From a phage, in NCBI GenBank assembly GCA_021146965.1, contig GCA_021146965.1_4847.1: 46,431 nt of DNA; one strand, 5' to 3'. A program made the translations under genes and the position numbers. Positions 16,537 through 41,526 of the stretch are shown piece after piece (positions within the stretch are counted from its first letter, which is position 1; each line of letters begins with the position of its first letter). The notes beneath the pieces were generated by a model, which searched no databases, was not told the origin of the DNA, and worked only from the letters and a program-made list of their open reading frames with translations.

Positions 16537-18435
16537 TTAAAATTCTTTTCGGTGGATTATGTCGCGACCTTTATCATTAATGCGATGCGTGATGCGTTTT
16601 GGCGCTTTAATCAACCCCGCATACATCATGAACTGCTTGGCGTTCTGGCATTTCAATATTTTCCCAGCCATTGACTTATCATCAAGGTGTGGGAATACAG
16701 CCTTTGCCTTGAACATGTTTTTCATGTGAGTTGCGCCGTCATAAGGGTAGAAAACTTCATTAGCCCAGCCTTCTTTGCCATCACAACGGTTAATCCAGTA
16801 GCGATATAAAATCCCCTCTCCGTCCTTCGTTAGTTGAACCTTGAAATCCATAACATCAGCCCACTCGTTATCTGTATAAGCACGCTCATTCAGTGCCGAA
16901 TTAGGGTCGCGCAACACGTGATCGCAATGTCTGCAATAGCGCGCAGTGGGGTCGTTTTTAGTGCCGCAACCATCATCAAAAATCCGGATTCCGTGCTTAT
17001 CAAAACCGCAACGGATGTAACTGAAAAATTCTTCGCAGCGACCATCTGGAGATAGCGGGTCTTTCCCTATGCATCGACGCGCATATGGGCTGTTCATTGT
17101 TCCACATGTATGACACGGAACTTGTTCGCCACTGCGTTTTGAACGTTGCGCTTCAGCCTCTTCCAGAATCGGGTCTTCATACAGCTGACCAAGCTCAAAC
17201 ATCGTGCCAGAGAAATCAAGAACCAGATGGTCTTCTTTATGATACCCGGCATCAATTTGCTCTTTCTTCAGTAGGCGCATTCCGCGACCAAGAAGCTGGA
17301 CAAGGAGAGTTAGCGACATTATTTTTCGCAATATGCAGCTCGTATCCCATAACGGTATATTTACGCCAGTGGTAAGGGCGGCTATCTGGAATGTGAATTT
17401 TTTACGCCCGGTGTATGCATCTTTTAGAGCCTTCCTTCTGGCTTTTGACCCCATATCTTCTGTAACTATTGAATAACTTCCTTCGGGTAGGTATTTTGCC
17501 GCCTCCTGACAATGTTTTTTACCAGCACATGTAATCAGTACGCCGTTTCTGTTTTTAGTCAACTCCATAACCTTGAGCATGATTTTCTGCGTCAACGTAC
17601 CTTGCTCAAGAATTTCTTTCTGCATCTGCTTGAGCTGCTCGGCGGTAAAGTCCTGAGTACCATCAACATCTGAACCATGAAAATCCGAAAGGTCATAATG
17701 CAGACTATCAACATCATGAAGACCAAAAATTGTTGGAACAAGAAAACCGTTTTCAACCATGTACTTGGTGTCTATGTTGATAATCTCTTTCTTCCAGAAA
17801 GCGCCTTTTATTGATGTAGTTCCGCGAAACGGTGAGCCTGTATAACCTATTATTCTCAACTCATGGCCATGCTTATCTTTACACCTTTTCATTAGCTCAT
17901 TAATTATCACTGCATACTGCGTATCACCATTATTAACAACATCAATGTCATTAACCATATGATTTTCATCGATCAGCAGGAATCTTGGGCAAAAGTCAGA
18001 GAGCGCACCTTTTGCAATAACATTCCCATGCTCATCTTTTTTATCAAACAAAGCATTTACAACAGTACCCTCAGAACCACAGATTATTGGGTACGTAGAA
18101 CTTTTCCTACCCAACGAAGCACTGAATAGCGAGTTTCTAACACCAAGCAACCATAGCTCTTCCGCATCTTGCTCCACTATTTCGCCCTGTCTTGATAAAA
18201 TCATCCCTGAATAGCCCATCTCCTGAAAACGCTTTGCTATCATGGCAATCATCAGTGACTTTCCGCTACCGACACTTGCTGTTACATAGCTTGGGCCAAC
18301 ATAATGACGAATCACATCGCCAGTTAACTTATATATCAACCACTGATAGGGTCTTGGCTCGATATCACCAGTATCCAGATAAGATTTCAGCAGATTAATA
18401 TCAATCTCTGAAATCATTTTGTCGATTTTATGCAT
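16537..18435 (-). CDS. SF2 DNA helicase (DEAD/DEAH-type) with C-terminal zinc-ribbon region
   Basis: motif I ASVGSGKSLMIAMIA, motif II LLIDENH, Cys-rich C-terminal segment (CHTCG...CRHCDH); start at ATG 18435. Confidence 0.8.
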   Translation of the reverse strand: MHKIDKMISEIDINLLKSYLDTGDIEPRPYQWLIYKLTGDVIRHYVGPSYVTASVGSGKSLMIAMIAKRFQEMGYSGMILSRQGEIVEQDAEELWLLGVRNSLFSASLGRKSSTYPIICGSEGTVVNALFDKKDEHGNVIAKGALSDFCPRFLLIDENHMVNDIDVVNNGDTQYAVIINELMKRCKDKHGHELRIIGYTGSPFRGTTSIKGAFWKKEIINIDTKYMVENGFLVPTIFGLHDVDSLHYDLSDFHGSDVDGTQDFTAEQLKQMQKEILEQGTLTQKIMLKVMELTKNRNGVLITCAGKKHCQEAAKYLPEGSYSIVTEDMGSKARRKALKDAYTGRKKFTFQIAALTTGVNIPLWDTSCILRKIMSLTLLVQLLGRGMRLLKKEQIDAGYHKEDHLVLDFSGTMFELGQLYEDPILEEAEAQRSKRSGEQVPCHTCGTMNSPYARRCIGKDPLSPDGRCEEFFSYIRCGFDKHGIRIFDDGCGTKNDPTARYCRHCDHVLRDPNSALNERAYTDNEWADVMDFKVQLTKDGEGILYRYWINRCDGKEGWANEVFYPYDGATHMKNMFKAKAVFPHLDDKSMAGKILKCQNAKQFMMYAGLIKAPKRITHRINDKGRDIIHRKEF

Positions 18436-18698
18436 TACCAAATCCTCGCACCAAGACGTTCAATTGTTTGTTTCTTTGTTTCATCATCTATTCCGCTATA
18501 AAAATACATATAACTAAGATTCCATAGATAATCTTCTGGTCGCTCATCGGCAAACAAATCATCCCACTCAAAAATCCATTCTCCAGTTCTCTGTCTTCTG
18601 TATATGGTTAGCCATGTATTGCTTCGTGGCGGGTATCCGAAGGAAACAGGGATTGGCTTGCCATGAAAAATCCTCTTAAAAATGCTATCAAGGAACAC
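18435..18698 (-). CDS. hypothetical protein
   Basis: 87-aa ORF, GTG start with upstream AGGA; first gene of leftward transcript from 18699-18773 intergenic region. Confidence 0.4.
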   Translation of the reverse strand: MFLDSIFKRIFHGKPIPVSFGYPPRSNTWLTIYRRQRTGEWIFEWDDLFADERPEDYLWNLSYMYFYSGIDDETKKQTIERLGARIW

Positions 18699-18713
18699 TG
18701 CTATATCCTTTTA

Positions 18714-18742
18714 TTGATGTTTCTACGTCAGTTAGCTTATAC
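18714..18742 (+). promoter_or_regulatory. putative sigma70 promoter for primase gene
   Basis: TTGATG (18714-18719) - 17 nt - TTATAC (18737-18742); spacer contains TCTACGTCA motif copy. Confidence 0.4.
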
Positions 18743-18773
18743 TCAATCTACACCAACAATCAAGGGTAAATTT

Positions 18774-19727
18774 ATGAGATACGACTGGAAAGACATTGAG
18801 CCAAAAATGATCGGAAATTGGCAAGCTGCCATCATGTCTATCGTCAATGTGGATAGCAGAGTTTTCAATGGCAAGCACCAGCCATGCCCGTCATGCTCAG
18901 GAAAAGACAGGTATCGCTTTGATGACAACTTCGAAACAAAAGGCGATGGCGGCGCAATCTGCAATCAGTGCGGTTCCGGCAGCGGCATGAATTGGCTGAT
19001 GAAACTCTCCGGAATGAGCTTTCCTGAAGCGCTGGAGGCACTTGGTGGATTCCTGAATATGCACCCGCGTGAAAAGCTGGAGGCAATCAGGAAAGAGCTA
19101 CCGAAGATAAATCACAGCGATGACTTCATCACCGAGCAGGAAGTCGCAGCAATCATGGCTAAAACGACTCGTGTCGCGATGAATGAGTGGACTTTGATAA
19201 ATGGTATTGGTTGCGACGTTAACGTCACCAGAGGCAAATCTGGAGAACTTATTGCGGTTGAGATGATGCGAGCTGACACAATGAAACTGTGCAACGTGGC
19301 ATTCATTGGCATGGATGGTGATTCAATCAGAACGTTTTTCCGCGCAGGATACAACAAGGACTCAGCCATCAACGGCAAACTCACGCGCGGCGCGATAAGC
19401 CCAATCGGAGAAGACAACGGGAAGTTCATTTACCTGGTATCTGATTATGCCGATGCGTGGAAATGCCACTACTTCACTGGCGCTCATGCCTGGTGCTGCT
19501 GGTCGCCGGAAAACATGTGGGAGGTTGTGCGCTCGGTTAGCGATGAAACGAAGGCGAGATTGCGCTGCATAGTTAATTATAAATTCGACGAACTTTGCGC
19601 TGCGGAAAATGCAGGGCTTCCGGTGATGCTTCCTGATGATGCTGAAACAATAAGGATGGCAAAGAGAATCAGGAGAAAGATTTATGACGCTGGCGAGCTG
19701 ATAGAGAAAATGCCAGTAAGCAGATAA
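18774..19727 (+). CDS. putative DNA primase (P4-alpha-type zinc-binding domain plus toprim-like region)
   Basis: HQPCPSCSGKDRYRFDD...GGAICNQCGSGSGMNWLMKLSGMSFPEALEAL is the classic primase zinc-binding signature; start at ATG 18774 with AAGGG RBS; encoded opposite to surrounding replication genes. Confidence 0.65.
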   Translation: MRYDWKDIEPKMIGNWQAAIMSIVNVDSRVFNGKHQPCPSCSGKDRYRFDDNFETKGDGGAICNQCGSGSGMNWLMKLSGMSFPEALEALGGFLNMHPREKLEAIRKELPKINHSDDFITEQEVAAIMAKTTRVAMNEWTLINGIGCDVNVTRGKSGELIAVEMMRADTMKLCNVAFIGMDGDSIRTFFRAGYNKDSAINGKLTRGAISPIGEDNGKFIYLVSDYADAWKCHYFTGAHAWCCWSPENMWEVVRSVSDETKARLRCIVNYKFDELCAAENAGLPVMLPDDAETIRMAKRIRRKIYDAGELIEKMPVSR

Positions 19728-20328: not shown

Positions 20329-20520
20329 TCACTTAATCATCAATTTTGAAATGTCAACATAACCAACAGAAAATCTGTGCCAGTAATCATCAAGTACGTG
20401 GTAATTAGATCGAATCCATACTTTGTTAATCCCAGACCAGAAAAACCACGTCGAATAACCATACGGTCTGAAATTCCATGAGCCTTCTGAGCGGCAAAGT
20501 TCGCCTGATATTGTTATCAT
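20329..20520 (-). CDS. hypothetical protein
   Basis: 63-aa ORF, ATGA-coupled to upstream gene. Confidence 0.4.
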   Translation of the reverse strand: MITISGELCRSEGSWNFRPYGYSTWFFWSGINKVWIRSNYHVLDDYWHRFSVGYVDISKLMIK

Positions 20521-22073
20521 TTCAACCTCGGATTTATGTGAACAGTGTTTCCGATAAATACGCAGTAACCATCCTCTTCAAGTGATGGCAATACACTTGA
20601 TCTGAGTCGGTCATAAATTTTAGGTATCCCTTTGAATGGTCGCACGTTTTTAAGTGAATCATAAAGCCACTTCACCGTTACGCTATTTTTCCCTTTCTGA
20701 GCGGCGGAGCGTAGTTTTTCGGCAACAACATCAAACTCAGATCGTTCACCAGCATACCCATTTGATTCAACAGCATCAGTGAACGTTTTTGTCAGTGCGT
20801 CATAAACACTGATGGCGCGACTAATTTCATTTTCACCGATAATCTTTGAACGCTTTCCTCCATCGCACCAGTTTTCAGCAGCGTGAAATATTGCTGCCAG
20901 ACGTATTATTTGCTTATCAGCTTTACCCATCGCGCCACGAAGAAGAACGTGGTCCCACTTACCGCCGGGAAGGAAGTTTTTCTCCCACTGATTTCGTAAC
21001 AGGCCGATCATTCTTGCTGAGTCATTGTGAAGCGTCAGTTTTGTTTTTTCTGCTGACACAACATTATGTATAAATCTTGCATATTCCGACCTCAAGCTGT
21101 CTGGCATTGGCTTGCTTACAGGGCAATCATTAACCATGTCCCAGTGTTCGCGATAGCCAAGCATTGATTGCTCTCGCAACATCAGGAAACGTTCAGAAAG
21201 ACCGTTCCCCCTGTCGCCAGCGGCAAGAATGGCATCAATACTTTCATCCTGCGCAATCACACTTATGTTTCCAAGCACGTAACCAGATGAAACGCCACGA
21301 CCAACACGAGCAGAGCCAATGAATCCGCCATCCCATCCCTTCAGGATGACTTCGGCGTTTGCCTTTCCACCTTCCTTTCCGTAAGAGAGGCCAAGACATG
21401 TGTTAAGAACGCTTGCCTCGTCACTTATCAGATTAAAAAAGCCACCTTCATGGATTGCCTGATGCTGAACAGCCTCCGGCGTTGCGTCAGTAAGTGGGTA
21501 TGTAATCGTATAAAGCTCTTCCAGCTTCTCCTTTTCCCGAGCAATATCGTCGCCGATTAGTGCCTTTGCATTCTGATTGCTGGCCTCTTTATATGCCTTC
21601 ATCAATTCTTCAATGCGAAGATTTATTTTTATGATCTGCTTTTCCATCTTTTTGGAAAGGTTGTCATATTCAATCTTCACCGGATTCATGTGCATTGAGT
21701 TGATAGCGGTTTTCCCTGCTGATGGAGGCTGAGAAGTAACCACGTAAAGAGAAACTGGAAGCTCTGAATGGTAATACTCAACGCTAAAGTTTCTCGTCAT
21801 TGCGCTGGCGACGCAACCAAGTAAATGCATGAACGATGTATTTATTGGGAACTGAACTGCGCGAGCTGCAGCGATTGCATAACGAGACAGCAAATCAGTC
21901 CTGTGCTCACTGGTCAGTTCTGTTTCTGAATACGTTACATCACGCTCCTTACCTTCCTTGATGTCCAGCCACATATTTGAGCTTGGTATCATGCCATAAT
22001 GGAAGGCAACGCGAGCCGGAGATACTTTCAATTCCCTTGCTTCGTTGAAGATGTCTTGAGCTGTGATCATCAT
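20517..22073 (-). CDS. putative replication protein with degenerate P-loop (DUF3987-like)
   Basis: 518 aa; YVVTSQPPSAGKTAIN P-loop-like motif; sits next to primase and origin-like region; family assignment from memory only. Confidence 0.4.
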   Translation of the reverse strand: MMITAQDIFNEARELKVSPARVAFHYGMIPSSNMWLDIKEGKERDVTYSETELTSEHRTDLLSRYAIAAARAVQFPINTSFMHLLGCVASAMTRNFSVEYYHSELPVSLYVVTSQPPSAGKTAINSMHMNPVKIEYDNLSKKMEKQIIKINLRIEELMKAYKEASNQNAKALIGDDIAREKEKLEELYTITYPLTDATPEAVQHQAIHEGGFFNLISDEASVLNTCLGLSYGKEGGKANAEVILKGWDGGFIGSARVGRGVSSGYVLGNISVIAQDESIDAILAAGDRGNGLSERFLMLREQSMLGYREHWDMVNDCPVSKPMPDSLRSEYARFIHNVVSAEKTKLTLHNDSARMIGLLRNQWEKNFLPGGKWDHVLLRGAMGKADKQIIRLAAIFHAAENWCDGGKRSKIIGENEISRAISVYDALTKTFTDAVESNGYAGERSEFDVVAEKLRSAAQKGKNSVTVKWLYDSLKNVRPFKGIPKIYDRLRSSVLPSLEEDGYCVFIGNTVHINPRLK

Positions 22074-22309
22074 GAAATCCTTTTTACGTAAACCATGTCT
22101 TTATCAGGGTATCCAACCTTTGTTGAGAATTTCATTCCTTCATTCCTGCGCATGAAGTAGTTTAATGCGTTCCTCAGGTTTGCAATTCCTCCAAACCTCT
22201 TCGAGTTAATCATCACAGTCTCACCTACTGAAACCGCCGACAACCCAGAAAGAGCTGCATTCTTTTTGCCGTACTTGTCAAGTTTCACAAAAGCCTCCAA
22301 CAGCAACAA
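22070..22309 (-). CDS. hypothetical protein (first gene of leftward early operon)
   Basis: 79-aa ORF with TTG start per track; ATGA-coupled to downstream gene. Confidence 0.35.
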   Translation of the reverse strand: MLLLEAFVKLDKYGKKNAALSGLSAVSVGETVMINSKRFGGIANLRNALNYFMRRNEGMKFSTKVGYPDKDMVYVKRIS

Positions 22310-22362
22310 ATTATAATTGAATCATATCATAACTATTGAATCATGCAACATCAAATACGACT

Positions 22363-22671
22363 CACGTGGGTAGCGTGGGGCAGCCGTGGGGAACATCACC
22401 TTCCCCACGAAGTTTCACTCTAAGTATATGTAATATAATATAATTATTATTATTTGGGTTAATGGGTAATATTATTATTCATATTATAGATAGTAATTAA
22501 CATAATATTAACAAATGGATTATTTGAATATATTTATAAGGGGATGGGTATGAAATCTTCCCCTTTTTACCCACGAAAAATAAAAACATTAAAATCAATT
22601 ATTTACGATGAAAAACGTGGGGCAACTGACCTTCCCCACGACCTGCCCCACGGGTAAAAATTTACCCCACG
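22363..22671. repeat. iteron-like CGTGGGG/CCCCACG heptamer clusters flanking a ~200-bp AT-rich core (putative origin of replication / divergent control region)
   Basis: left cluster: CGTGGG(G) at 22363-22370, 22374-22380, 22384-22391 plus inverted CCCCACG 22403-22409; right cluster: CGTGGGG 22616-22622 plus inverted CCCCACG 22634-22640, 22646-22652, 22665-22671; core 22411-22610 is very AT-rich. Confidence 0.6.
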
Positions 22672-22694
22672 AGCACGTTTTTAACGCATTCATG

Positions 22695-22723
22695 TTGACG
22701 TAGAATCACAACTGATGTAGATT
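22695..22723 (+). promoter_or_regulatory. putative rightward early promoter
   Basis: TTGACG (22695-22700) - 17 nt - TAGATT (22718-22723), 30 nt upstream of first rightward ORF. Confidence 0.55.
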
Positions 22724-22753
22724 GAACTCATAGGAACAAACGAGGGTGAAGAG

Positions 22754-22900
22754 ATGAGAATCAAAGACCGTGAAGAATTTGAAGATGCACAGACTATGGC
22801 GCGCATTGCAGTTAACCGCACAAACAACAGCATTCCTGCAGAAGCATTCTGGAACGCAGCGATGCAGGCTTTAATCTCAGCGTATGGACTCAGCAAATGA
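22754..22900 (+). CDS. small hypothetical protein (48 aa)
   Basis: ATG with GAGGGTG RBS; first of a string of ATGA-coupled small early ORFs. Confidence 0.4.
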   Translation: MRIKDREEFEDAQTMARIAVNRTNNSIPAEAFWNAAMQALISAYGLSK

Positions 22901-22992
22901 CAGGCGCAACACTCGAACTTATCGCCAGTCTGGTTATCGTTGCTGGCATCATTATCGCAGTGGCAGTTTCCAAATCAGGGTATAAGGAGTGA
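22897..22992 (+). CDS. small hydrophobic protein (31 aa)
   Basis: MTGATLELIASLVIVAGIIIAVAVSKSGYKE; single TM helix; ATGA-coupled. Confidence 0.3.
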   Translation: MTGATLELIASLVIVAGIIIAVAVSKSGYKE

Positions 22993-22996
22993 CAAG

Positions 22997-23077
22997 ATGA
23001 GCAACTGGCATAACGAACACATCATGCAATGGTATCGTCGCCGCATTAAGGCAATCATTAACTCTTATGAGGTTTAA
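22997..23077 (+). CDS. small hypothetical protein (26 aa)
   Basis: short ORF with AAGGAG RBS; very low confidence. Confidence 0.2.
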   Translation: MSNWHNEHIMQWYRRRIKAIINSYEV

Positions 23078-25003: not shown

Positions 25004-25444
25004 ATGGCGAATCCAAATCCAAAACACAAGTTTTCCTCTACAAATCAACCGCCTCCGCGCGGTAAGAGTTATCGCACAGTGCTGCTTGAGGCGCTTCGTG
25101 CTGCAAATACACCGATGAATGAGATTGAATTCGTCACGTATTACATCAATAGGGCCATGACATGCGAAGACGCTCAGGCAACTGGTATGCTTCGAGAGAT
25201 ATTCCTGCGGCTCAACCCAATTCCTAAGCCTGTAGCTCCTCCTGTGGAGTTTGACTTCCCTGCTGACGGAACTCCGGTTCAGAAAATGGATGCAATCATC
25301 AAGGGTGTCTCCACTGGCGTCGTGCCTGCTGACATCGGCAAGATGATGGCTGACATTATCAAGTCTGGCCTTGATATTCAGGAAATCACCGAACTCGCAG
25401 CGCGACTTGAGCGACTGGAGAAATTGCTGGAACAGCAACAGTAA
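25004..25444 (+). CDS. terS: putative terminase small subunit
   Basis: 146-aa ORF immediately upstream of terminase large subunit region; assigned by position and size. Confidence 0.4.
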   Translation: MANPNPKHKFSSTNQPPPRGKSYRTVLLEALRAANTPMNEIEFVTYYINRAMTCEDAQATGMLREIFLRLNPIPKPVAPPVEFDFPADGTPVQKMDAIIKGVSTGVVPADIGKMMADIIKSGLDIQEITELAARLERLEKLLEQQQ

Positions 25445-25546: not shown

Positions 25547-26059
25547 ATGCGACCCTTAAAAGAAGAAAAACTCACGCAAGACAGGCTGAAAGAGTTGCTG
25601 CATTATAACCATGATACTGGTATTTTCACATGGGTTCAGCGCGCCTCAAAAAGCGTAAGAGTTGGTAATTCAGCTGGCAGTAAGAATAAGTCAGGCTATA
25701 TAGATATACGCATCGATAAGTCTTTACACAAAGCTCATCGGCTTGCGTGGCTTTACATTTATGGTGTGTGGCCCAATGGGAAAATAGATCACATCAATAA
25801 CGTGAAGACAGATAACAGAATCTGCAACCTGAGAGAAGCAAGCAATAATGAAAACGGATGGAATGCTGGTAAACCATCGACAAATACGTCAGGAGTAAAA
25901 GGTGTGAGTTGGGATGCAGAGAAAAATAAATGGAAGGCGCATTGCAGGGTTTTTGGGAAAAAATATACAGTAGGTAGGTTTTCATCAAAAGAATATGCTG
26001 AGAGAGCCGTGGCGGAGTTCAGAGAGAAACATCACGGGGAGTTTTTTAATCATGGCTAG
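25547..26059 (+). CDS. HNH homing endonuclease with AP2 domain (paralog 2 of 4), inserted between terS and terL
   Basis: IDHINNVKTDNRICNLREA motif plus AP2-like SGVKGVSWDAEKNKWKAHCRVFGKKYTVGRF; 3' end overlaps terL start. Confidence 0.8.
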   Translation: MRPLKEEKLTQDRLKELLHYNHDTGIFTWVQRASKSVRVGNSAGSKNKSGYIDIRIDKSLHKAHRLAWLYIYGVWPNGKIDHINNVKTDNRICNLREASNNENGWNAGKPSTNTSGVKGVSWDAEKNKWKAHCRVFGKKYTVGRFSSKEYAERAVAEFREKHHGEFFNHG

Positions 26060-27476
26060 AAAAAGACTCTCAAGTGTGGCAATCGAAAAACTTGAACAGG
26101 CGGTTGGAAACTCAACTTCAAAGCCTGAGTCTGCTGTATTTGGCATTGTTAACAAACTGCTTGCCGATGGTACGCCTAATGTTATAAAGCGCCTAAAAAT
26201 GACATCAACAGGCGTATCTGAAACAAACGAAGAACCAACAATCCTCATTCCCGAGAGAATGGAATTACTGCTTTATCCTCGTCGTTTCAAAGTGTTCTAT
26301 GGTGGTAGGGGGAGCGGAAAGACGGCTAACGTTGTTTCTTACCTCATCGAAAAGGCAAGATTCCGTAACAGTCGCGTCGGATGCTTTCGTGAGATACAGA
26401 ACTCAATCAAAGAATCAAGCTATGCCGAACTGGTTGATGAGATAAACAGGAAAGGACACACTCAGGAATATCGTTGCGTGGATGGTGAAATAACCCACCA
26501 TTCAACGAGGTCAAAGTTTGTTTTCCGTGGTTTGTGGCGAAATATAACCGCCATTAAGGGTATGGCTGGCCTTACAGATGTATTCTGTGAAGAATCAGAA
26601 AATATCAGCCAGGTTTCATGGGATACGCTAATCCCAACAGTCCGCGCCGCTGGCTCTGAAATTATTATTGTTTTTAACCCAAACAAAGAGACGGACCCGA
26701 CATGGACTAACTTTGTTGCGCCTTATATTGACAAGATGGTTGACGGCATATATCAGGATGATGACATCGTTGTTGTTAATGTTAATTACATCCACAACCC
26801 GTGGTTCACGGAAGAACTTAAGCAGCACATGAACCAGATGAAAGCTGTGGATTATGATCGCTACCTTTGGGTGTATGAAGGCTTATTCAACAAGCGGTCT
26901 GACGAAGCTGTTCTCGGGGGGAAATGGCAAACACTCGACTTTGAACCATCTCCTGAGTGGGGTGGGCCTTACTACGGCATTGACTTTGGTTTTTCTCAGG
27001 ATGCAACAGCAGCAACTGAATCATATGTAGAAGATTTGGGTGATGGACGAAGAAACCTGTATATCTATCGTGACTTTGCAAAGGTTGGCCTTGAGATAAC
27101 TGACACGCCGGAAGCGATGCGCTCAGCATTCCCAAATTCAGAGAAGTACAGATGGTATGGGGATTGCGCAAGACCTGAAACAATAAGCCATATACGACGC
27201 TCTGGATTCGATATTCATCCGTGCGCAAAATGGCCGGGGAGCATTGAGGACGGTATTACGTGGCTGCGTGGGTGTGACAGGATTTACGTGCACTCAAGAT
27301 GCAGGCACGTCATTGAAGAGATGACAATGTACAGCTATAAGGTGGACAAATTAACAGGTAACATACTCCCTGATATAGTTGATAAATACAATCACGCGAT
27401 TGATAGTTTACGCTATGGACTTGGAGATCACATCGTTCAACGCGGTAGCGGGATGCTAATCCGGCGCAGGCGATAA
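26052..27476 (+). CDS. terL: terminase large subunit
   Basis: Walker A FYGGRGSGKT; ~475 aa; start placed at ATG 26052 (track ORF begins 25995 inside HNH gene). Confidence 0.85.
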   Translation: MARKRLSSVAIEKLEQAVGNSTSKPESAVFGIVNKLLADGTPNVIKRLKMTSTGVSETNEEPTILIPERMELLLYPRRFKVFYGGRGSGKTANVVSYLIEKARFRNSRVGCFREIQNSIKESSYAELVDEINRKGHTQEYRCVDGEITHHSTRSKFVFRGLWRNITAIKGMAGLTDVFCEESENISQVSWDTLIPTVRAAGSEIIIVFNPNKETDPTWTNFVAPYIDKMVDGIYQDDDIVVVNVNYIHNPWFTEELKQHMNQMKAVDYDRYLWVYEGLFNKRSDEAVLGGKWQTLDFEPSPEWGGPYYGIDFGFSQDATAATESYVEDLGDGRRNLYIYRDFAKVGLEITDTPEAMRSAFPNSEKYRWYGDCARPETISHIRRSGFDIHPCAKWPGSIEDGITWLRGCDRIYVHSRCRHVIEEMTMYSYKVDKLTGNILPDIVDKYNHAIDSLRYGLGDHIVQRGSGMLIRRRR

Positions 27477-32353: not shown

Positions 32354-32632
32354 ATGAAACTATCGCAACGAGGCGTGGAGACGTTTGGAATTACCGATGC
32401 CGTGAATATATCGCCTTACATCACTACCGAGACAACGCAGAATCAGTTCGACGCGCTGGCAAGTCTTGCCACCGACATTGGCATTTACGCGTTCCGTAAA
32501 TCAACGCTTCTGAAGAAGCACAACCTCCGCTGCTTCTCATGTGCTGTTGCGCATTTCATCGCGTGGGGCGAGAAGACTGGCGACAAAGCAAAACGCAAAG
32601 CTGAAAAAGAGGTTTACTGGTATGGCTATTAG
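32354..32632 (+). CDS. GH24 (P22 gp19-type) lysozyme-like protein lacking the catalytic N-terminal core (probable gene remnant)
   Basis: 92 aa; C-terminal part TTQNQFDALASLATDIGIYAFRKSTLLKKHNL matches the conserved Q.Q.DAL.SL..N.G..AF..ST.L..LN segment of P22-type lysozymes, but the E/D/T catalytic region and ~55 aa are absent; 3' end overlaps endolysin start. Confidence 0.5.
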   Translation: MKLSQRGVETFGITDAVNISPYITTETTQNQFDALASLATDIGIYAFRKSTLLKKHNLRCFSCAVAHFIAWGEKTGDKAKRKAEKEVYWYGY

Positions 32633-40453: not shown

Positions 40454-41526
40454 TGGAAAAGATTATTTTTACCAAAGACTTGGTAGCCAACTCCGCAGTG
40501 GTGGCTGACCAGTGGAAACATCTCACCATCGACCGCAAGGTGTTCTGCAATGCAGAAGCTGAACTGGCGAAAACATACGGTGTTAACGCCACCGCGCTGG
40601 TAACGAAAGATTACTGGCGCGACGTGGATAACGTCACCACCCGTGTTTTCCGCAACGAAGCTGGCCAGGACATGATGGCTGACCTGATGGGTATCGCGGC
40701 AAACATTAACATTGGTAAGACTGTGGCAATCAGCCGCATTGCTTCCGATGCTGGCAAGGTAGTCCGCACTCTGTCTGGTCAGGAGCCGGAAGACTTGGAT
40801 AAAACTCGCTACGATTACACTGGCGACGTGATTCCAATCTTCAAAACTGGCTACAGCCGCGAATGGCGCGAACTGCTGGGTATGCAGTCTGAAGGTTTTG
40901 ACCCCCTGCTGGACGATCAGGCTAACGTCACCTTTAACCTACGTTCCGACATGGCGCAGTATCTGCTGACCGGCGACCAGACTCTGAACGTGAACGGCGT
41001 TTACACTGGCTACGGTATCACCAACCACCCGAACACCATTCAGGTCAACCTGAACGTTTCCGATGGCGGCCTGAATATCGACCTGCAAACCGCAACGCCA
41101 GATGAAATCGTGAAATTCTTCAATCAGGATTTCCAGGCTATTCTGGATGCGCAGAACGTATTTGAGCAGGTGACTCTGTGGGTTTCCCCGGCAGTGCGTC
41201 GCAGTTTCATGCGTCCGTATTCTAATGCGGCTGGCTTCAAAGGCGGCACGGTTGAGCAGTACATCACGCAGTTCGGTAATGGTCGCATTGGTAAGATTGG
41301 CACCAACTTCCTGCTGACTGGCAACCATTTCGTTGGTTACGTTCGCAACGACATGTACATCCGTCCGCGTGTTGCTCAGCCTGTCTCCACCTATGCGGCA
41401 GCTCGCACCAACCCGCACGATAACTTTAACTTCCTCGTATGGTCTGCTTTCGGTCTGCAGATTCGCAAGGATGCCGCTGGAAAAAGCCGCGTCTTTAATG
41501 GCTATGGTAGCCAGAAAGCTAAATAA
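40453..41526 (+). CDS. major capsid protein (HK97-fold)
   Basis: 357-aa ORF in canonical position after protease/scaffold and decoration genes, followed by strong terminator; size and composition typical. Confidence 0.65.

Follow-up and report, generated by a model that had tools for sequence, protein, structure and literature searches.

A putative iteron-type replication origin associated with the MCM-like DUF3987 helicase gene of Skate-like siphophages

The plan of a replication origin built from clustered short repeats and adjoining A+T-rich DNA is known in kind from several replicons. Iteron plasmids (F, R6K, pPS10 and RK2) and the lambda ori carry direct repeats of 17-22 bp on one side of an A+T-rich unwinding element, where a dedicated Rep or O protein recruits the host DnaB helicase; inverted copies of the plasmid repeats act as autoregulatory operators, and the lambda ori lies within the O gene. 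Satellite phage P4 has octamer repeats in ori and in a second region, crr, which is required and is located about 4.5 kb away; the repeats are bound by the C-terminal domain of the alpha protein, a primase fused to an SF3 helicase that is both helicase and initiator. At the origins served by SV40/polyomavirus large T and papillomavirus E1, inverted short G-rich repeats lie beside an A+T tract, with early and late promoters diverging on either side; the replicative helicase serves as initiator, assembled as a head-to-head double hexamer, and the same sites autoregulate the early promoter. The subject of this report is a module of CGTGGGG heptamers on either side of an A+T-rich core, at positions 22365-22671 of a 46,431-bp phage contig (GCA_021146965.1_4847.1 of NCBI GenBank assembly GCA_021146965.1; the whole contig is termed the window below). 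Judged from sequence comparison, the module is probably the origin of vegetative replication, of the iteron and unwinding-element type, and is probably loaded by a phage-encoded helicase itself.

The window is 99.8% identical to Salmonella phage vB_SenS_ST1UNAM, a lytic siphovirus whose whole record is about 47 kb, and its phage is classed by sequence as a lytic siphophage of Salmonella/E. coli of the Skate/Vi II-E1/Akira-like kind. Relatives are classified in or around Skatevirus, Macdonaldcampvirus (Vi II-E1), Akiravirus, Deseoctovirus and Shuimuvirus, and headful packaging with circular permutation has been reported for members of the group. Such phages have been isolated in large numbers for biocontrol of Salmonella, E. 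coli and Klebsiella and have been proposed as synthetic-biology chassis. For this group no earlier account of such an origin was found: full-text searches of the open-access literature, whether for the repeat itself or for replication origins of these genera, returned no relevant description. Public records annotate the repeats as a "repeat of sequence GTGGGGCAACCAACCTGCCCCACGA" in Vi II-E1 and as a "repeat_region" in Akira, with no function assigned.

In the origin of the Staphylococcus aureus pathogenicity islands (SaPIs), 6-12 penta- or hexanucleotide iterons lie beside rep around an A+T-rich centre, in opposite orientation on each side; the C-terminal winged helix of the self-loading Rep has been shown to bind them, the primase is adjacent, and a two-hexamer model has been put forward (PMC9371898). 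The window shares with this system at least six clustered repeats, their placement on both sides of an A+T centre with at least two per side in opposed orientation, linkage to a helicase gene whose product has a predicted C-terminal winged helix, in keeping with the domain plan of Rep, and a primase gene close by. It differs in that the helicase is a DUF3987/SF6 MCM-like protein that falls outside the SaPI Rep families (Rep1, Rep2, PriRep5); the SaPI5 PriRep structure 7ola appears at rank 25 (probability 0.66, TM 0.23) in a Foldseek search with the helicase model described below. The SaPI helicase that had been characterised before belongs to the DUF927 family. SaPI Reps unwind 3'-5', whereas the proven DUF3987 member unwinds 5'-3'. 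The repeats here are heptamers with a run of four G, accompanied by conserved weak internal sites, and the core, at about 200 bp, is much longer than the approximately 80 bp of the SaPI core. The module also usually lies 5' of the gene, between divergent promoters, and belongs to a lytic phage and not to a satellite. The resemblance to the SaPI origin is taken as functional, not as membership. Unlike P4 with its crr, the 46,431-bp window holds no second heptamer cluster. The polyomavirus and papillomavirus origins differ as compact origins of about 64 bp, served by SF3 helicases in eukaryotic viruses, and homology is not implied.

The repeat clusters and the core between them

The module sits in a 440-bp gap that separates a leftward from a rightward operon. 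Its parts, and the promoter-like sites that border it, are the following.

22326-22354, minus strand: leftward early promoter-like site, TTGATG-17-TATGAT (or TTGCAT-16-TATGAT), 11 bp outside the proximal cluster
22365-22409: helicase-proximal cluster, CGTGGGT 22365-22371 (+), CGTGGGG 22374-22380 (+) and 22385-22391 (+), CCCCACG 22403-22409 (a minus-strand copy)
22410-22615: A+T-rich core, putative DNA unwinding element by nearest-neighbour stability
22455-22469, plus strand: internal tandem pair of weak repeat-like sites, TGGGTTAA-TGGGTAA, with G runs invariant in an alignment of ten relatives
22540-22575: second internal group of G runs, GGGGATGGGTAT 22540-22551 (+), TTCCCC 22558-22563, ACCCACG 22569-22575 (CGTGGGT on the minus strand)
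22616-22671: helicase-distal cluster, CGTGGGG 22616-22622 (+), CCCCACG 22634-22640, 22646-22652 and 22665-22671 (minus-strand copies)
22695-22723, plus strand: rightward early promoter-like site, TTGACG-17-TAGATT, 23 bp outside the distal cluster; the operon begins at ATG 22754

Exact CGTGGGG occurs eight times on the two strands of the window, and seven of the eight copies fall within 22374-22671. The chance of such a concentration is put at about 1e-16; shuffled sequences average 2.4 copies per window, from which the Poisson chance of at least seven copies in any 310-bp stretch is about 8e-15. The remaining exact copy (32562-32568) is isolated and fits the chance expectation of 2.4 per window. 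Two further copies match at six of seven positions (22365 and 22569), giving nine sites in total in 22365-22671. An earlier note on this DNA had listed three direct copies and one inverted copy on the left, and one direct and three inverted copies on the right. The right cluster is exactly as it was described, as is the inverted copy on the left; of the three left direct copies, two are exact and the third is the six-of-seven match at 22365-22371. When the whole window was scanned with a weight matrix derived from the sites, the eight highest-scoring matches all fell inside 22365-22671. The match at rank 8, CGTGGGTAA (22566-22577, minus strand), had been left out of matrix building and contains the ninth site, CGTGGGT at 22569-22575, which falls within the A+T-rich core.

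The sites read + + + - on the left and + - - - on the right, so that the outer copies face inward with two-fold symmetry, and the same pattern is present in relatives. The layout of the proximal cluster is retained in the ten aligned relatives despite variable flanking bases. Each cluster contains one 25-bp palindrome of the form CGTGGGG-N11-CCCCACG (22385-22409 and 22616-22640), and the two palindromes are 231 bp, or about 22 helical turns, apart. Corresponding distances are 231 bp in Vi II-E1 (L002), 223 bp in VLCpiS13a (L011) and 227 bp in the distant L095, where L numbers denote loci of the comparison presented below; their similarity suggests a constraint on helical phase or distance. The site consensus in the window is (CG)TGGGG(C/A)A, and the CG prefix is absent from Klebsiella phages, so that the conserved repeat core is TGGGG(C/A)A.

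Between the clusters, the earlier description of some 200 bp of very A+T-rich DNA is borne out. The least stable 100 bp of the window, 22425-22524, is 86% A+T with a nearest-neighbour dG of -97.8 kcal/mol, compared to a window mean of -138.4 (sd 7.2) and to -119.0 for the next least stable 100-bp stretch, which places the core 5.6 sd from the mean. A periodicity of A/T tracts claimed for the same DNA did not survive comparison with shuffled sequence, in which AA/TT spectral power at 10 and 10.5 bp was matched by 13% and 72% of shuffles; from 22513 to 22611, in the right half, the tracts do begin at roughly 10-bp steps.

Segment scoring of the ten-relative alignment shows 22410-22540 to be the best conserved intergenic segment, at 94-98.5% identity in close relatives. 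It remains 78.8% identical in Klebsiella phages, as against 50-64% for the repeat and promoter segments and 76% (nucleotide) for the helicase gene. The position of the weak tandem pair is occupied by full-strength repeats in Vibrio phage D93 (GGGGGTAATGGGGGTAT) and in L023 (TGGGGTGGTGGGGTAAT), and the CCC-TTTTT-ACCC arrangement of the second internal group is found again in D93. Other segments are mosaic. The stretch 22578-22615 is replaced in HC6, STGO-35-1 and C1. IME207, DS8 and Vi II-E1 carry other sequence in place of the leftward promoter, the outer left repeats and the small ORF (open reading frame) next to the module. The G-run sites nevertheless keep their number and orientation. A match to the consensus of integration host factor (IHF), WATCAANNNNTTR at 22593-22605 (+), is placed in the replaceable segment 22578-22615, past the internal G-run group and ahead of the distal cluster.

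The -35 box TTGACG of the rightward promoter-like site is invariant across the ten-relative alignment; it follows the module in D93 as well, and reads TTGACT in Pectobacterium phage Ymer. The leftward promoter-like site is predicted, from its match to the consensus, to drive the operon of the small ORF and the helicase. A further promoter-like site is located inside the core (TTAATA-17-TATAAT, 22511..22483, minus strand, 10/12 matches), with a -10 box invariant in the ten relatives; it points leftward across the proximal repeats, and might provide an origin-activating or primer transcript.

Two other candidates for the function of this region were set aside. A 37-aa ORF with a plausible ribosome-binding site (22544-22657, plus strand) runs over the distal repeats and was rejected as a small protein gene, being unconserved: it is broken after 12 codons in VLCpiS13a, and its segment is replaced in HC6, STGO-35-1 and C1. 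Coding sequences annotated near these positions in AB4P2, Bas79 and DS8 are probably spurious. A structured RNA was rejected as well, the sole Rfam match scoring 16.9 bits against a gathering score of 100.

Linkage of the module to the DUF3987 helicase gene

The two genes nearest the left side of the module are the following.

20517-22073, minus strand: DUF3987/SF6 MCM-like AAA+ helicase, 518 aa (Pfam PF13148, PHROG 2373, AlphaFold2 model), the candidate initiator
22070-22288, minus strand: small ORF of 72 aa, between the module and the helicase gene, with a likely GTG start at 22288 and a GGAGG ribosome-binding site

The origin reading is favored because the module of repeats and A+T-rich DNA travels with the DUF3987 gene across phages that otherwise differ. 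Homologues of the helicase number more than 1,100 in deposited phage genomes and form 72 clusters in a protein collection. At each locus compared, the densest cluster of any 6-mer containing G+C was scanned for and set against the least stable 100 bp. A set of 80 IMG/VR loci included 31 of Skate-like type (helicase 61-99% identical), 26 of them with a complete upstream flank. In all 26 the largest TGGGG cluster is located 285-331 bp upstream of the helicase gene, holds 6-10 copies per 400 bp and overlaps the least stable 100 bp of the locus. Repeats of TGGGG type in opposed orientation around the stability minimum are present in every complete relative examined.

The module is also found in at least seven distant lineages, where the helicase is only 37-62% identical. 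All 11 TGGGGT copies of L023 (helicase 62%) fall in the module, and the module is present in Ymer (L022, 49%), whose record is cut in the core. A TGGGG-type cluster coincides with the stability minimum in L024 (42%), L025 (39%) and D93 (39.5%), as does a cluster in L095 (37%) and L089 (38%), and the coincidence holds for a variant repeat, TGGGAT, in L027 (39%). The distance from module to DUF3987 gene is within about 1.3 kb in D93, L022-L025, L027, L089 and L095. The D93 module aligns to that of the window over approximately 370 bp with a score of 64 (shuffles: mean 28, maximum 46), and the TTGACG box, the CCC-TTTTT-ACCC element and the tandem internal pair are among the aligned features. The L024 module comes immediately 3' of the helicase gene, beyond a terminator-like hairpin (read by eye), and that of L025 about 1 kb downstream of the helicase; both are flanked by co-directional genes. 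Gene order, transcription layout, small-terminase family, host and flanking small ORFs all vary among the phages that bear the module, and the sole gene near it in all these lineages is that of the DUF3987 helicase.

Some helicase homologues are accompanied by other repeats. Vibrio phage 1.105.O (L019, helicase 26%) has the same architecture with a different repeat, GATGACACGG. A second cluster in this phage (10198-10528), with six CACGGA (part of its repeat) on the least stable 100 bp, lies about 37 kb from the helicase-proximal module and might be a second origin or an enhancer similar to P4 crr. T1-like Drexlerviridae have an A+T-rich region with inverted repeats of other motifs, located upstream of the helicase at about 3.5 kb in Webervirus loci and at about 2 kb in JeanPiccard. 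The inverted repeats are of GTATAC type or 36 nt long and stand in a divergent region (L021, JeanPiccard, 40523-41231; L083, 1150-1520); this segment may be an equivalent origin of other specificity.

The features of the helicase itself are consistent with a role as initiator. The 518-aa protein matches Pfam PF13148 with E=1.3e-34 (120.5 bits, cut-off 27) and PHROG 2373, "DNA helicase". Across 51 homologues G120 and K121 of the Walker A motif (PPSAGKT) are invariant, position 122 being S/T, as are S217 and E219 of Walker B (ISDEA). An AlphaFold2 model built from the 51-sequence alignment (pLDDT 90, pTM 0.86) ends in a canonical winged helix, residues 443-518, with the order H-S-H-H-S-S by DSSP (helices 443-459, 467-474 and 486-500; strands 464-466, 504-507 and 510-513; block-mean pLDDT 86-94). 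A PDB sequence search with the helicase gave no match. The best PDB matches of the model in Foldseek are MCM5, MCM6, MCM7 and archaeal MCM 4r7y, with probabilities of about 1.0 and a best E of 8e-5; TM to the MCMs is only about 0.35, the protein being multi-domain. The modelled fold is thus read as that of an MCM-like AAA+ protein with a C-terminal winged helix, a domain that a self-loading initiator would be expected to have. Published profile analyses assign the DUF3987 family to SF6, as MCM-related predicted replicative helicases that end in a winged helix. For one PriCT-DUF3987 protein, ATP-dependent 5'-3' helicase activity and binding to its primase have been demonstrated. Among homologues with 39-45% identity in the helicase core, the winged helix is 39-41% identical in TGGGG phages versus 26-32% in T1-like phages and the TGGGAT phage. 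Though the number of cases is small, this suggests that the winged helix co-varies with the type of repeat.

The small ORF between module and helicase gene has no Pfam or PHROG family match. In Akira an annotated AP2-domain protein stands in its place (L017, 223-495), as does an AP2-like sequence (judged by eye) in KlebP_265 (L016, 2261-2500), and both phages retain the repeats. Because the ORF is replaced by an AP2 protein while the repeats stay, it was rejected as a general repeat binder.

Origin, operator or packaging site

It is important to emphasize that several observations weigh against reading the module as an origin. The cumulative GC-skew minimum, which the earlier note had proposed as a check, does fall in 22001-23000, as is compatible with an origin, but there it coincides with the switch in gene orientation and is confounded with the change of coding strand. 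In the Skate-like phages the module lies between divergent early promoters, and a regulatory role there fits equally well. Several deposited genomes are cut inside the core, which could conceivably mark physical ends. The core is conserved in sequence and not in composition alone, for which simple meltability fails to account, and passive melting likewise would leave the conserved internal promoter-like site unexplained. Binding of the repeats by the helicase is proposed solely from linkage and domain content. Finally, the T1-like Drexlerviridae, with helicases 34-39% identical, have no TGGGG cluster near the helicase; as a test set these phages speak neither for nor against an origin.

The possibility that the heptamers are only an operator array was also raised in the earlier note. 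They would then bind a regulator of the two divergent early promoters, perhaps looping the A+T-rich DNA between the palindromes, with replication initiated elsewhere. Each cluster does stand just upstream of an outward promoter-like site, the invariant rightward -35 box lies beside a cluster, and the two 25-bp palindromes, which would fit dimeric regulators, are in helical phase (231 bp, 22 turns). This reading is weakened by the finding that no site overlaps the predicted -35 or -10 hexamers, from which the clusters are separated by gaps of 11 bp (left) and 23 bp (right), and by L024 and L025, in which co-directional genes flank the module. The module has no regulator gene conserved alongside it and no helix-turn-helix (HTH) gene is common to all lineages, the helicase being the one gene always near it; in Akira and KlebP_265 an AP2 protein takes the place of the neighboring small ORF with the repeats unchanged. 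At least nine sites together with an extreme, unwinding-prone core also exceed the needs of known early-promoter operators. A purely regulatory array is thus considered unlikely, and a secondary (auto)regulatory role on the early promoters alongside an origin is possible.

A packaging site, in which the repeats bind small terminase around the first headful cut, is very improbable. Its model would be the pac site of phage P1, with hexamer repeats on either side of the cleavage region, and it draws on headful packaging in the group and on terminase genes that follow about 2.5-3.3 kb downstream in Skate-like phages (putative small terminase at 25004 and large terminase at 25995 in the window). 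The records of Akira, ZC2, KpV2811 and Ymer and two IMG/VR genomes also end inside the A+T core. The cut positions vary between records, however, Akira has no terminal repeat, and PhageTerm detected no termini in KlebP_265. The ZC2 record is an unedited Nextera/SPAdes contig, and coverage dropout at 86% A+T is the simpler cause of such record ends. In the 79-kb D93, where the module adjoins the helicase gene, the remaining 24 kb of the record carry no annotated terminase, and small-terminase families differ among phages with the TGGGG module (Terminase_2 in L024, GP3_package in L025, no Pfam match in the window). The core-cut records are opened at differing positions (L017/L001, Akira; L018, ZC2; L022, Ymer; L040; L051; L054), and 4 of the 31 loci in the Skate-like IMG/VR set break off 365-496 bp upstream of the helicase gene. 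Such ends are probably coverage or assembly breaks. Genome termini or terminal repeats were rejected as an explanation of the module: the Akira record is opened at window position 22510/22511 without redundancy, other cuts are elsewhere, and the group is circularly permuted with headful packaging. In practical terms, assemblies appear to break recurrently at the 86% A+T core, and some records carry spurious ORFs annotated across the repeats.

An origin could also be served by a different initiator, a small early protein or a host factor that binds the heptamers and recruits the DUF3987 helicase, in the way that lambda O/P recruits DnaB. Many small early ORFs flank the module on both sides, and the binding of the repeats by the helicase rests on prediction. 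SaPI1 Rep shows poor origin discrimination in vitro, and an extra specificity factor has been suggested there (PMC9371898). Such an arrangement is nevertheless judged quite unlikely, as no small ORF accompanies the module consistently from one lineage to the next, the hosts span Vibrio, Salmonella and Pectobacterium, and divergence of the winged helix follows the type of repeat.

Comparative evidence thus supports an origin at 22365-22671, as the earlier note had interpreted it, better than it supports the alternatives, in that the module appears linked to the DUF3987 helicase gene from phage to phage. The process would begin with early transcription from the two outward promoters, by which the MCM-like helicase and the primase are made. 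The winged helix of the helicase would recognise TGGGG(C/A)A, a candidate target sequence being CGTGGGGCA. The strong outer sites would nucleate two opposed oligomers, one per cluster, and the weak internal sites would lead them into the A+T core, whose melting would be aided by negative supercoiling from divergent transcription between the promoters. Helicase rings would then self-load on the single strands, the phage DnaG-type primase would prime, and a host polymerase would extend; Pfam searches gave no DNA polymerase match among the genes of the leftward replication operon that were examined. Replication would be bidirectional initially, and the Erf/exonuclease/SSB functions encoded in the same operon would later generate concatemers for headful packaging. 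More speculatively, occupied sites beside the -35 boxes might damp early transcription.

A bolder proposal, which we hold tentatively and consider rather doubtful, is that the module is a two-fold symmetric platform on which the MCM-like helicase self-licenses as two opposed hexamers, the sequence-conserved core, with its graded weak sites and its internal promoter-like site, being a specific assembly and priming track and not a passive unwinding element. If true, this would be a minimal, one-protein counterpart of the double-hexamer loading of archaeal and eukaryotic MCM, and possibly a simple bacterial-virus model for symmetric loading of an MCM-like helicase at an origin. With a candidate origin delimited to about 340 bp and a specific protein proposed as its initiator, the recruitment and loading of DUF3987/MCM-like helicases in bacteria, which is essentially unstudied, is in any case opened to study. 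Origin specificity might be swapped through the winged helix, and the origin might drive phage-dependent amplification of plasmids.

Neighboring genes and minor observations

The remaining genes of the region that bear on replication or packaging are the following.

16537-18441, minus strand: SF2 helicase (ResIII/Helicase_C; Pfam, PHROG), part of the replication module
18663-19727, plus strand: DnaG-type primase with zinc ribbon of the primase-helicase type (Pfam PF08273, E=4.5e-12; PHROG 510)
25004-25444: putative small terminase, no Pfam match
25995-27476: large terminase

The leftward operon comprises the small ORF, the DUF3987 gene, more small ORFs, the SF2 helicase, nucleases, a recombinase and the single-stranded DNA-binding protein (SSB), and its recombination genes are those of the Erf/exonuclease/SSB set. 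The earlier note had placed primase, DUF3987-like protein and helicase together as leftward replication genes adjoining the repeats; this is correct for the DUF3987 protein and the helicase, which are on the minus strand, and incorrect for the primase, which is embedded within the leftward operon on the opposite strand. Rightward of the module, small early genes are followed after about 2.3 kb by the terminase genes.

The small ORF next to the module could alternatively start at TTG 22309, which gives 79 aa in the ORF list. The ST1UNAM record annotates a 108-aa coding sequence that runs from this region into the repeats, and the reading frame is closed in the window. Between the small and large terminase genes, a homing-endonuclease-like gene with HNH_3 and AP2 domains (25547-26059, plus strand) overlaps the start of the large terminase.

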